64,000 bases of DNA from Octopus vulgaris (Eukaryota): positions 45,012,001 through 45,076,000 of the forward strand of contig OX597835.1 in assembly GCA_951406725.2 (NCBI GenBank), read 5' to 3'. Shown piece after piece: positions 35,985-59,825 of the stretch. Under the pieces are notes generated by a model. The model searched no databases. It saw only the letters and a list, made by a program, of their open reading frames with translations, and was not told the DNA's origin. Made by a program: the position numbers and the translations under genes. Positions within the stretch are counted from its first letter, which is position 1. Each line of letters starts with the position of its first letter.

Positions 35985-36978
35985 TATTTACATTAAAATG
36001 TACGCATTGAATTGTTTGGGATGGAGTTCCTCGCTGAAACATCATGTTTATGCCATTGTTGCCACATTGTTTAAGGTTACAAATTTAATAATTTAGACGG
36101 CGAAGATTTGTAAAGTCACTTTGATGTTGTGGTTAGCATGGCTGTATGATTTGCAAGTAGACTCAGCGTTGAAATACAGTAGACGATTACAACACTTTCC
36201 ACTTCACTGTCACACACATTATGCGCGTGTGTTTGTATGCGTGTAGCCGTGTTAGACTGCGTCGACCTTCACCTTGTACAATAACAATCAACTACAAGTT
36301 TCGAGTACCCTTTCATTTTAATGTTAATTTGTATTTATAACATGAGATAAATACAGGCATCAATATACCCATGTGATATTCGAACGTGCAATGGAATAAT
36401 ACGAACCTGCCAACGGGGATCTCAATTCACACACTATATTATATATCTCTAATGTCGTTATTCCTTTGTATCTCTCTCTGCCTGGATGTGTGTGTGTGTA
36501 CGTGTACAGACAGCTAGATAGATACATAGACACACACACTCACACACATTCACACACATGTGCGTGTGTGTAGAGAAATAAAGAGAGAGAGAGGAGGAGG
36601 ACAGACAGACAAACAGAGGAAGAGAGAGAAAGATAGAATTAGAGACAAATTAGTGTGAATATTTATTTATATAACTGAGGGTAACGTTCCAGGTTATTTG
36701 CAAATTGTGTACGGAAGTATTTCTGTCGTATGTAGGAAAAAAAACCCGTAACAGGTGAAATGTTTCTGACAGACGAATATGTTATGATGAAACCTTGTTT
36801 GCAAAGATCAACGAGTTCAGAAACGTGGATTTAAACATATTTATCATGAAAAAATAATGCTTGTGCAAATTTGGAGTGTAAGATATCATATTTATTTCAA
36901 CTGCAAGCCAGCGTGTTTATTCCCAACGGTCCTTAATAATTTTATGGCTTCATTGGAATCGTACCAAATACTATAACT

Positions 36979-37397
36979 ACCTATTTCTTTACTACCCACA
37001 AGGGGCTAAACACAGAAAGGTCGAACAAGGACAGACAAACGGATTAAGTCGATTATATCGACCCCGGTGCGTAGCTGTACTTATTTAATCGACCCCGAAA
37101 TGATGAAAGGCAAAGTCGACCTCGGCGGAATTTGAACTCAGAACGTAACGCCAGACGAAATACCTACTTCTTTACTACCCACAAGGGGATAAACACAGAG
37201 GGGACAAACAAGGACAGACACATGGATTAAATTGATTACATCGACCCCAGTGCGTAACTGGTGCTTATTTAATCGACCCTGAAAGGATGAAAGGCAAAGT
37301 CGACCTCGGCGGAATTTGAACTCAGAACATAACGGCAGACGAAATACGGCTACGCATTTCGCCCGGCGTGCTAACCTTTCTGCCAGCTCGCCGCCTT
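36979..37397 (-). mobile_element. SINE family C head-to-tail dimer
   Basis: One head followed by two body+tail-1 units; whole dimer flanked by AAATACTATAAC (36966-36977 and 37400-37411). Confidence 0.9.
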
Positions 37398-38121
37398 CGA
37401 AATACTATAACCACCACTAATAACATGCAGCCACGAGGTGGAGGGTTAGGTGGAGCATATCTCAGTTTGACTCCTGACTTGCTAGAAATGTCTTTTTAAT
37501 CGTAGAACGATCACACTCTACTCTCTTTCACAACTAGCAAAAAAGAACCAAAAAATTTACAACAGTAAATTTAATCTCAAATACAATAGACTGAATGGCC
37601 ACGGCTGGGTGGTTTTGGATGTTAATGATGGCACGTGTTTGATTTTATGTCTTCACTACCATTCTCGATCAGGGGACTCAGTAAGGAAATAAAAGGTTGG
37701 ACGAATAAACGAGATGGAGTCTATGTGCAAGTTTGACATGCTGCAAGTAGCAGTTAAAACTTAGGTACACTTCGTTAGAAATGAAACGTCTTTGATTATA
37801 GATTTGTAAATAATTTGTCATAAAAGAACCTGCCTTGACGCGCACAGACACGAACACACTCATAAAACAAATACACACACACACACATATATGTTTAAGT
37901 ATATATATATAGCAATAATAATTCTCTAAACGAGGTATATACAGTAACTGCTCCATAACATAAGGGACGTTAGCCATCCGAATATGGCTAGGGACAGGGC
38001 AGGGCGGTGGGGGTGTTACTGATGCATTTAGCCCCAGGCGATCATCAACGTCACCAGGAGGGCTGACGCCATCACGGCGTCCTCTAGCCTGCAAAGGGAG
38101 ATCATTCCCCGAAGAAGCGGA

Positions 38122-38179
38122 TGCCACACACGGACCCAGGTTTCAAGGTGTTTGCCTCTCGTCAACGTATGGTAGGCAC
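38122..38179 (-). ncRNA. Type I hammerhead ribozyme motif, copy 1
   Basis: Reverse-complement copy of the motif at 38444-38500. Confidence 0.65.
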
Positions 38180-38443
38180 CGCCCCTCGACGAACGACTCT
38201 CTGCCCTCCTGGTGACGTTGATGATCGCCTGGGGCTAAATGCATCAGTAACACCCCCACCGCCCTGCCCTGTCCCTAGCCACATTCAGATGGCTAACGTC
38301 CCTTATGTTATGCAGCAGTTACTGTCTATACCTCGTTTAGAGAATTATTATTGCTGTCGAACAGATTTTCTACATCAGTAAATGTATTTACTGTGAAAAT
38401 CTTTATATATAGCCTGCACAGAGAGTCGTTCGTCGAGGGGCGG

Positions 38444-38500
38444 TGCCTGCCATACGTTGACGAGAGGCAAACACCTTGAAACCTGGGTCCGTGTGGGGCA
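38444..38500 (+). ncRNA. Type I hammerhead ribozyme motif, copy 2
   Basis: Stem I CCAUACG/CGUGUGG; core UUGACGA; stem II GAGG(CAAACA)CCUU; GAAA; short stem III ACC..GGU; GUC triplet; stem I extends (UGCC/GGCA) past a bulge. Confidence 0.7.
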
Positions 38501-38658
38501 TCCGCTTCTTCGGGGAATGATCTCCCTTTGCAGGCTAGAGGACGCCGTGATGGCGTCAGCCCTCCTGGTGACGTTGATGATCGCCTGGGGCTAAATGCAT
38601 CAGTAACACCCCCACCCCCTGCCCTGTCCCTAGCCATATTCGGATGGCTAACGTCCCT

Positions 38659-38691
<33 letters not shown>

Positions 38692-38699
<8 letters not shown>

Positions 38700-38993
38700 A
38701 TCACGTGACCGACCAGACCATCAGATGTTGTTACACACCGCTGGTCACAATGCGTTCGCATTGTTTTAGCCTTCGAATGACGCCACCCCGCTGGCTAAGC
38801 AGGCCAACAGAAGAAAGAGTGGGAGAAAGTGTGGTGAAAGAGTACAGCAGGGATCACCACCCCCTGCCGGAGCCTCGTGGAGCTTTTTAGGTGTTTTCGC
38901 TCAATAAACACTCACAACGCCCGGTCTGGGAATCGAAACCGCAATCCTACGACCGCGAGTCCGCTGCCCTAACCACTAGGCCATTACGCCTTC
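38692..38993 (-). mobile_element. SINE family A, tail type 2
   Basis: Family A head; tail ends ..GGTCGGTCACGTGATCACGTGA followed by (TA)n. Confidence 0.9.
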
Positions 38994-39001
38994 ACACACA
39001 G

Positions 39002-39037
<36 letters not shown>

Positions 39038-39094
39038 CAAAAGTCATGCACCAAAACAGTTGATATTTTATTCCTATTATGTTATTCTTATTTG

Positions 39095-39990
39095 ACAGAG
39101 CTGCAGCCATGGGTCAAACGTAGGCCAAGGTTGGGTGTTTGACAGCTAGAATGTTGCCTGGCACTCCCTGTATTGTACCAGCTGCCCAGAACCGTTAGCG
39201 GGAAAGCATCCCAAGATTTCTATAGGGGTCTAGTTGAATGTATGAGGGATGATCGCCTAGGATTGAATCTAGGCATCGATGAGAACAGTCTGAGTAGTTT
39301 CTTCCAGAGGAGCTTCGGGTCGAAGATCATAGACAATTTCTAAACGTTTTAGTCTTGGCAGTGCTACAGAGGGTTATTACCCGTTTGAAACAACCTCTTC
39401 AGTTATGGAAGTGCCAACAGCCGAACCTGCCCGAAATGCTTGCAGGGGGACGAAACGGTCCTGCATTCAATAAATCAGTGTCCGTGAATTAGAGAGTTAT
39501 GAGATTGTGTGCAGCTGCTGTTGTCGCGTGAAGACGAATGCGGCTGTCTGACGAGTGTATAGCGAAGATCGATGCACCACTTTTCATTAGCAGAGATGGA
39601 AGGCAGCTCTTAGCCTGATTGGTGGCTGTTGCAAAAGAGGCTATGTGGTGGACCTGCCCGAAAGGTTTGAAGACAGGTACAAGCCCTCATCAATTTCTTC
39701 AAATAACATTTGTAGAGGAAGGTGAAGGTAGAGAGGGAGGTGCTGCCTTCTAGTGTGTTTATCAAAAGATGGTCGACAGTGGCAAGACTGGTGCGACTGA
39801 ATGGATCTACTCTGAATATGCTTTTCTAAGAAGGAGGAAAGAAACTGCAAGAGGGCACAGGGATAACTCTGCCTTGGAGATTGCAGAGTTATCCCTGATT
39901 TTTGTGTGGGGATTACCCCTATTACCCTAAGTGGACTACTTCGCTATTGCGGATTCTATTTATCTATTTATTATTTCTTTCTCTACTTCC
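39095..39990 (+). mobile_element. Decayed Tx1/L1-like LINE, ORF2 C-terminus and 3' UTR (older subfamily)
   Basis: Zinc-finger region WQCYRGLLPV..RTCPKCLQGDETVLH; LVAVAKEAMWW..LINFFK*HL*RKVKVEREVL..KRW is homologous to 46662-46886; many stops and frameshifts. Confidence 0.8.
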
Positions 39991-40124
39991 TATTATATAA
40001 ACCTGTGGTACATCCTTTAATGTTGATTGATGTTAACCGCACATTATTTTGTAATTCGTTTTTCGTGTAATAACTCGTCCTTCAATATTGTCCTTCGTGT
40101 TTTGAGCTCCTGTGAACAATAAAA

Positions 40125-40126
<2 letters not shown>

Positions 40127-40160
<34 letters not shown>

Positions 40161-40901: not shown

Positions 40902-41137
40902 TAAGGTGGCGAGCTGGCAGAAGCGTTAGCAAGCCGGGCGAAATGCTTTGCGGTATTTCGTCTGTCGTTACGTTCTGAGTTCAAATTCCGTCAAGGTCGA
41001 CTTTGCCTTTCATCCTTTTGGGGTCGATAAATTAAGTACCAGTTACGCACTAGGGTCGATGTAATCGACTTAATACCTATGTCTGTCCTTGTTTGTCCCC
41101 TCTGTGTTTAGCCCCTTGTGGGTAATAAAGAAATAGG
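40902..41137 (+). mobile_element. SINE family C, monomer
   Basis: A and B boxes; TSD GGTTGTATTAA (40894-40904 and 41136-41146). Confidence 0.92.
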
Positions 41138-59287: not shown

Positions 59288-59825
59288 TCACCCCAGAGGG
59301 CACTCACTAAACGGATTGAAGGCATGGCTGCTCTCGATTATTGGGATGGCCTTAAAGCCTTGAAACTTTACTCCCTCCAGCGTCGCCGTGAGCGGTACAT
59401 CATTTGTACGATGTGGAGAATATACCGCCAACTTTGCCCAAACGACCTTAACATTAGCTTCAAGGTCCATCCAAGACTGGGACCACGGACAATACGTCCC
59501 CTGCCCAATTCAAGATCACAACATACATGTACACTGCAACATAATTTCTTTTCCTCAACAGACCCTGCCCTATTTAACATTGTCCCGAGGGAGATCAAAG
59601 AGGAAAAGGATCCCATCAACTTTAAACGGAGTCTGGATAGATTCCTTCAAAGAATACCAGATAAGCCACCCATAATTGGATACAACTCACCCAACAAGAA
59701 CTCACTACTTGAACAAAACTTGACTGAAGCAAAACCTGACTTAAACAGGATTCGAATAATCCTATCAGGTGGTGCTATTAAGTTAGACATGGCCTGGACC
59801 AATCTTTGGTCGAAACATATCTAAG

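Follow-up and report, generated by a model that had tools for sequence, protein, structure and literature searches.

The window, by which is meant the whole 64,000-nt stretch of Octopus vulgaris DNA analysed here, is AT-rich, microsatellite-rich DNA of animal type. At positions 37911-38663 it holds repeat copies in inverted orientation, with a hammerhead ribozyme motif on each strand. The locus raises the questions of what kind of element was inserted, how the inverted arrangement arose, and whether the motif could act as a ribozyme.

Repeat unit and layout of the insertion

A BLAST search of the region against the window gave three related pieces at this locus and no further copy in the 64 kb. 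The sequence 38419-38663 is matched in inverted orientation by 37958-38203, with 243 of 246 positions identical. Likewise inverted is the match between 38200-38355 and 37911-38066 (151/156, a count that takes in 4 nt before the junction). In addition, 38556-38663 is a second, direct copy of 38200-38308, with 105 of 109 positions identical. The spacing of this direct repeat gives a period of 356 nt, and the GC content of the unit is 50.6%. Mismatches from arm to arm are found at 3 of 246 and 4 of 152 positions, and the three copies of segment a differ mutually at fixed positions. The nested inverted copies with few mismatches that were described in an initial annotation of this DNA are thus borne out, and the low arm-to-arm divergence agrees with its view of a young element. 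The unit itself has to be redrawn. It had been given as about 290 bp long and with a separate spacer; the unit is 356 nt long when the 63 nt of the supposed spacer, which contigs bridge on both sides, are included.

For this comparison contigs of four public sequencing runs (X1, X2, X4 and X11) were aligned to one repeat-free unit, 38309-38663, at 82% or more. Bridging was counted among 28 pieces of 1620, with 31 nt or more on either side. Four contigs cross the tail-to-spacer edge (38355/38356), five the spacer-to-ribozyme edge (38418/38419) and four the ribozyme-to-a edge (38559/38560). Because contigs bridge both of its edges, and because the passage from segment a to the tail is continuous in the window, 38356-38418 belongs to the element, and the end of the unit leads back to its start. 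No contig spanning the whole unit was present among these 28 pieces of 1620 from the four runs, hence no tandem of two full ribozyme units was seen.

The coordinates of the features are collected in Table 1. The 3′ ends of the arms lie 174 nt (right) and 222 nt (left) downstream of the predicted cut site, and thus the left arm carries a short 3′ extension.

Table 1. Features of the locus and its immediate flanks, in window positions
Feature	Position	Strand	Remarks
Left (TA)6 tract, putative target	37900-37911		Base 37911 fits tract and element alike
Left arm, 293-nt 5′-truncated unit copy	37911-38203	- (ribozyme sense)	5′ end 38203 corresponds to unit position 38419
3′ extension of left arm, absent from right end	37911-37957	-	47 nt, equals 38309-38355; putatively PLE tail-like (compare PMC8557442)
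Type I hammerhead motif, - copy, with extended stem I	38113-38186	-	U3 at 38165
Head-to-head inversion junction of two 5′-truncated arms	38203-38204		G38203 fits both arms
Right arm	38204-38663	+	460 nt, 1.29 head-to-tail units of the 356-nt repeat
AT-rich part of unit (earlier "spacer")	38356-38418	+	63 nt; hairpin 38363-38402; internal (TA)4 38404-38411
Predicted rod prolonging stem I	38410-38537	+	Closed by a 9-bp inverted repeat, 38410-38418 being the exact reverse complement of 38529-38537
Type I hammerhead motif, + copy	38436-38509	+	Descriptor and fold
Stem I, + copy	38450-38456/38490-38496	+	Plus bulged extension; descriptor
Core U3-A9, + copy	38457-38463	+	Descriptor
Stem II with 6-nt loop, + copy	38464-38477	+	4-bp stem
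GAAA, + copy	38478-38481	+	Descriptor
Self-complementary stretch, + copy	38481-38488	+	Pairs with itself over 8 bp
Right (TA)15 tract, putative target	38663-38692		Base 38663 fits tract and element alike

The AT-rich target of a PLE-type insertion is found on both sides, as (TA)6 on the left and (TA)15 on the right, where a target duplication is indistinguishable from the tract. It should be noted that the internal (TA)4 lies just ahead of the start of the rod, and that the contigs show variants there. This tract might serve as a self-target from which tandems are seeded, or act like a TATA box.

Hammerhead motif and predicted fold of the unit

A descriptor for type I hammerheads (NUGANGA core, stems I and II, minimal stem III) finds exactly two sites in 64 kb, one per strand as claimed initially, with position 3 at 38457 (+) and 38165 (-). 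At a stricter setting, which the + copy passes, shuffle controls gave no match in 40 shuffles of the window and none in 5000 shuffles of the unit. The predicted cut is after C17, which is C38489 on the + strand and C38133 on the - strand. A three-way junction opening at stem I is present, with pairs at 1.1-2.1, 10.1-11.1 and A15.1-U16.1, and stem III has only 2-3 bp.

The consensus core is C3 U4 G5 A6 N7 G8 A9, G12 A13 A14 A15 and U16 H17 (PMC3088659). Twelve of 13 positions agree with it here; the exception, in both copies, is U3 in place of C3, with G8 unchanged. This substitution has a direct bearing on activity and had not been remarked on initially. Thus the description as a complete type I hammerhead holds for the motif and its three-way junction but not for a canonical core, in view of U3 with G8, a G·U pair at 10.1-11.1 in both copies and the minimal stem III, which that description omitted. 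Similarly, the 7-bp stem I claimed for the element exists in the + copy only, for the - copy has T in place of G38496, as does all contig depth of the four runs. With C demanded at position 3 the descriptor has no match at all in the 64 kb. The Rfam search that had been proposed as a check found no hammerhead: the whole window has no match at gathering score, and 37800-39900, at E up to 10, has 12 matches, none of them a hammerhead and all far below gathering score. No variant at or above the 4% listing threshold occurs in the four runs at U3, G8, 10.1 or 11.1. The motif is therefore classed as a core variant that would likely work like a hammerhead, rather than as a canonical one.

C3 pairs with G8, and in the common natural U3 form the change is compensated by A8 (PMC4209133, PMC3088659). 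A natural variant reported from halophiles has a U3...G8 core with a 2-nt insertion (PMC7151607). U at position 3 is common to these variants and to the octopus motif, which however keeps G8, has no insertion at 2a/2b and belongs to an animal repeat family. In a table of PLE hammerheads, which lists canonical motifs, 34 of 34 rows begin with C3 (PMC8557442). One survey rejected any hit failing the consensus, for example at C3, and regards most of what it rejected as cryptic, mutated hammerheads located in repeats (PMC3088659). A U3·G8 core without insertion was not found described in the literature, nor was a retrozyme from octopus or other cephalopods, but PMC5785218 and the supplements of PMC7229834 may list such cores or such an element. 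The class of element and the inverted layout are already published, and the U3·G8 core is the feature of the putative ribozyme for which no description was found. If this family-wide core is active, standard descriptors would miss some animal hammerhead families.

In computed folds the circular unit reaches -121.6 kcal/mol with 63% of positions paired (z -3.9; 0 of 100 shuffles as low). The active fold of the monomer lies 5.3 kcal/mol above its minimum. With two copies the double hammerhead is the minimum-energy fold, at -68.0 kcal/mol vs -63.0 kcal/mol for two monomers. Because stem III is short and self-complementary, the predicted active form is a dimer, and the predicted fold of the unit agrees with the dimer model put forward for animal type I hammerheads (PMC4209133, PMC7229834, PMC6765202). 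A family variant, G38485A, makes the stem III palindrome perfect (-9.8 to -11.4 kcal/mol) and accounts for 20-51% of the depth in X1, X2 and X4.

Substitutions among the family copies were compared with this fold. Of 30 listed, 12 are at unpaired positions, 11 leave a pair intact, 2 are mutually compensating and 5 disrupt a pair. The same changes placed at random are expected to break 12.6 (P 0.00065). The compensating change, from G38412-C38535 to U-A, occurs at comparable frequencies in three runs, where the two positions are unphased. Significance is reached neither by the number of compensated sites (P 0.14) nor by the absence of variants in 14 core positions (chance 0.29). The comparison used the fold of the window's own sequence and the copies are related, and for these reasons the evidence for selection on the RNA structure of the unit is moderate. 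By eye, the hairpin of the AT-rich part is kept through a change from A-U to C-G in X2 and X4, and at 38544/38554 a G-C pair is replaced by A-U in one X11 contig of depth 4.8.

Transcripts of the locus and copies of the family

It had also been proposed that RNA transcribed from either strand would be self-cleaving, in competition with long duplexes. In computed folds, limited to nested structures, pairing of stems I and II is 0 in both full-length transcripts, and also 0 in nascent - strand RNA whose start is at 38470 or lies farther outwards. What is left of the proposal concerns nascent + strand RNA and RNA started internally. In the + strand RNA from 37911 the antisense is caught in the loop of the first hairpin, so that stem I stays at 0.99 up to the synthesis of the last segment; in RNA started between the two copies stem I is kept partly or fully, at 0.43-0.99 (again nested structures only). 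Even there the active fold of the monomer would call for a second ribozyme, which is present on neither strand. The two hammerhead copies point outwards, so that in a read-through transcript the antisense is synthesised ahead of the ribozyme. Within the complete read-through RNA the ribozyme is predicted to be buried, and the long duplexes look like a by-product of the inversion. With only one ribozyme motif per strand, unit-length RNA cannot be released from the locus. Thus the locus is a dispersed derivative, and not an "active" retrozyme array in the sense of Li et al. 2026.

The stretch is present in 20 of 24 listed runs, from 11 studies, and no RNA run holding it is among the 24. Half or more of the sampled words are found in 8 of the 24 runs, under four organism labels, with 0.64 in the best run. 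In X1, X2, X4 and X11, respectively, 848, 367, 389 and 3 contigs fit the unit, most of them less than 99% alike, and no copy number can be read from these counts. The summed contig depth along the unit, likewise not a copy number, is uneven and is lowest at 38405-38440. Contigs that run on into unlike sequence make up a share of 0, 0 and 0.01 in X1, X2 and X4, where these contigs are short. The inversion junction 38203/38204 is not among the contig joints of the four runs, as aligned to the single unit 38309-38663. Both arms have G at 38493, where 61-100% of the contig depth is A. This shared G, together with the few arm mismatches, agrees with a single recent event that drew on a single source. 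Two exact-pattern scans of metagenome contigs gave 0 and 0 matches.

Two sets of contigs stand apart. An 845-nt contig of X4 fits the unit over only 66 nt (38314-38379), and the rest could be flank, a divergent subfamily or a longer parent. The three contigs of X11 have depths of 2.3-4.8, and two low-depth ones, of 201 and 188 nt, jointly cover the whole unit and break near 38479-38481; that this run is of RNA nature is a guess.

The frames of the window were scanned for a coding partner. No Pfam match was found in the 150 longest of 409 complexity-filtered open frames (67 aa or more), a scan that decayed remnants could escape, and the reverse transcriptase (RT) plus GIY-YIG reading frame of an autonomous Penelope-like element (PLE) was not found in these scanned frames. 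Those of the element's own open frames that are among the 150 have no Pfam match, and no coding capacity was seen in them, in line with the non-autonomous character suggested at the outset. The multi-copy element of retrozyme or Penelope type that had been suspected is supported by the hundreds of contigs in three of the runs, and by a layout of the kind that PLE insertions have (PMC8557442). That layout had been presented as a special nested design, and it follows the standard pattern of PLE insertions as given in the legend of Fig. 2 of the same paper.

Origin of the insertion

Animal non-LTR retrozymes are described as 150-450-bp repeats with type I hammerheads, some of them active mainly as dimers (PMC7229834). 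Reported unit lengths are 350-390 bp in mussel and 331 and 353 bp in axolotl (PMC7229834; Li, Clavereau and Pollet 2026, 10.64898/2026.07.22.740005). The octopus repeat resembles these elements (Cervera and de la Peña 2020, PMC7229834) in its 356-nt non-coding unit, its many divergent copies, its type I hammerhead with a 4-bp stem II and a short, self-complementary stem III, and its highly self-paired predicted circle. It differs from them in the U3·G8 core, in G10.1·U11.1, in the inverted 5′ copy, and in having only 1.29 units with one ribozyme per strand; its GC content of 50.6% compares with under 50% in the metazoan retrozymes, and its cleavage and its circular RNA are predictions. With the insertions of endonuclease-bearing PLEs (Craig et al. 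2021, PMC8557442; Frangieh et al. 2024, PMC11167929) it shares a partial tandem with an adjacent inverted 5′-truncated copy, a tail-like extension at one end, a (TA)n target and a hammerhead upstream of the 3′ ends. Unlike these PLEs it has no RT/GIY-YIG frame found in the window, a unit of 356 nt vs kilobases, and a tail of 47 nt.

The reading that we prefer, to which a probability of about 0.6 is given, is that a non-coding 356-nt repeat, present in many copies and carrying a type I hammerhead motif, was inserted here in one event, that the inserted copy is likely a dispersed daughter of a non-LTR retrozyme family, and that it was likely reverse-transcribed into (TA)n by PLE enzymes. The partial tandem, the adjacent inverted 5′-truncated copy, the one-sided tail and the preference for (TA)n are all reported traits of PLE insertions (PMC8557442), and the partial tandem with its inverted neighbour is present at this locus. 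The tail of 47 nt, seen here in a single insertion, compares with reported PLE tails of 30-40 bp at one end that recur among copies (PMC8557442). A purified PLE protein is reported to cut AT-rich DNA and to extend both strands, with initiation at two sites on the RNA that delimit the tail (PMC11167929). Naiad and Hydra PLEs that target (TA)n are listed for the octopus genus (PMC8557442), and recently active Penelope-like families are reported from O. vulgaris (PMC13282606). Seven short motifs of the element were compared with the PLE library of PMC8557442; six had no match and one had a 10-nt match in unrelated sequence. A likeness by eye between segment a and the start of Naiad_Ovul was set aside as too short.

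In the proposed mechanism tandem source arrays would be transcribed and cleave slowly as double hammerheads, paired via the self-complementary stem III, and cleavage would release 356-nt monomers able to circularise. Since the right arm is longer than one unit, the template of the present copy is taken to have been a multimeric or circular RNA of the unit. A PLE endonuclease would have cut both strands of the AT-rich target, and the PLE reverse transcriptase would have extended both target ends from start points that lie 174 and 222 nt downstream of where the ribozyme is predicted to cut. The two 5′-truncated cDNAs would then have joined at 38203/38204. The resulting copy, with one ribozyme per strand, releases no monomer and is probably a dead end.

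It has been proposed that PLEs mobilise animal retrozymes, and the identity of the enzyme is still a hypothesis (10.64898/2026.07.22.740005, PMC7229834). The combination of inversion, one-sided tail and (TA)n target is a putative PLE footprint that can be tested genome-wide. A stronger version of the preferred reading, which is offered tentatively, is that the family has a functional hammerhead with a fixed U3·G8 wobble, which would cut only as a dimer and be missed by consensus searches and by Rfam, in an octopus lineage for which no described retrozyme was found, and that its insertions carry the whole Penelope signature on more-than-unit-length cDNA. If true, that signature would count as direct evidence, at the genome level, for the mobilisation of animal retrozymes by PLE enzymes.

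The same PLE-mobilised, non-autonomous repeat may instead have a hammerhead that no longer cuts, with U3·G8 and G10.1·U11.1 fixed and the element spread as uncut multimeric RNA. In both arms position 3 is uncompensated, with no variant listed there in the four runs. Inactivation of the hammerhead did not affect insertion by the PLE protein in vitro (PMC11167929), and of nine predicted retrozyme dimers of Xenopus one cleaved and eight did not (10.64898/2026.07.22.740005). However the stems survive in the family variants, which also bring stem III closer to a perfect palindrome; U and G can still pair; and the halophile core shows that U3 with G8 occurs naturally, there with an insertion (PMC7151607). 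Loss of cleavage is regarded as unlikely. An autonomous PLE truncated ahead of its reading frame, with the arms as its terminal repeats (pLTRs), is an improbable source, because both the right arm and contigs show the tail leading through 63 nt directly to the ribozyme again, and such a 356-nt cycle has no room for a frame. Contigs continuing into unlike sequence are almost absent, though the contigs are short, and a 4-bp stem II with a bulged stem I is of retrozyme type, vs the long stem II of minimal PLE motifs (PMC4209133, PMC7229834). A protein search for a longer relative of the left-arm open frame, a weak test, found 0 among 61 candidates. The pLTR explanation draws on Penelope-13_HM, which is listed with the same layout and a hammerhead on each strand (PMC8557442), on truncated PLEs with dual hammerheads on opposite strands 100-700 bp apart (PMC4209133), and on the 845-nt contig with its short fit to the unit.

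An origin at the DNA level, either as a plain tandem insertion later rearranged by fold-back or template switch or as a foldback/MITE-like DNA element, would account for the terminal inverted repeats 37958-38203 and 38419-38663, for flanks that fit a TA target and for one base of microhomology at the junction. It is nevertheless highly improbable: with the left end exceeding the right by 47 nt, the two ends do not correspond as matched terminal repeats do; 38309-38355 and 38419-38663 are contiguous in the left arm, an order absent from the right arm; and the pattern agrees with the PLE scheme (PMC8557442). Assemblies are said to have trouble with tandem plus inverted PLE structures (PMC8557442), and the junction was missing from the contig joints, but an assembly or chimeric-read artefact of a high-copy repeat is scarcely credible. 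The fixed differences among the three segment a copies are not expected from a fold-back read. With the best run at only 0.64 of sampled words, no run need carry the locus, and contigs drop rare forms.

Several other repeats lie near the insertion. One at 38694-38990, which we presume to be SINE-like, begins directly after the right (TA)15, and 38671-38720 matches 62696-62647 at 98%; the element may have inserted into the TA tail of this repeat. Another interspersed repeat has partial tandem copies 183-184 nt apart at 36975-37397 and an inverted copy 3.5 kb away, at 40903-41000. A 21-nt likeness to segment a, of 81%, is seen at 39248-39268 and was not recovered by BLAST. The stretch 39200-40160 is higher in GC, ends in an (ATT)n run and is possibly a decayed retroelement. 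Further downstream, a 178-aa open frame at 59288-59821 (+) has 24 relatives, the best of 70% identity, and no Pfam match; we take it to be the end of a LINE reading frame.
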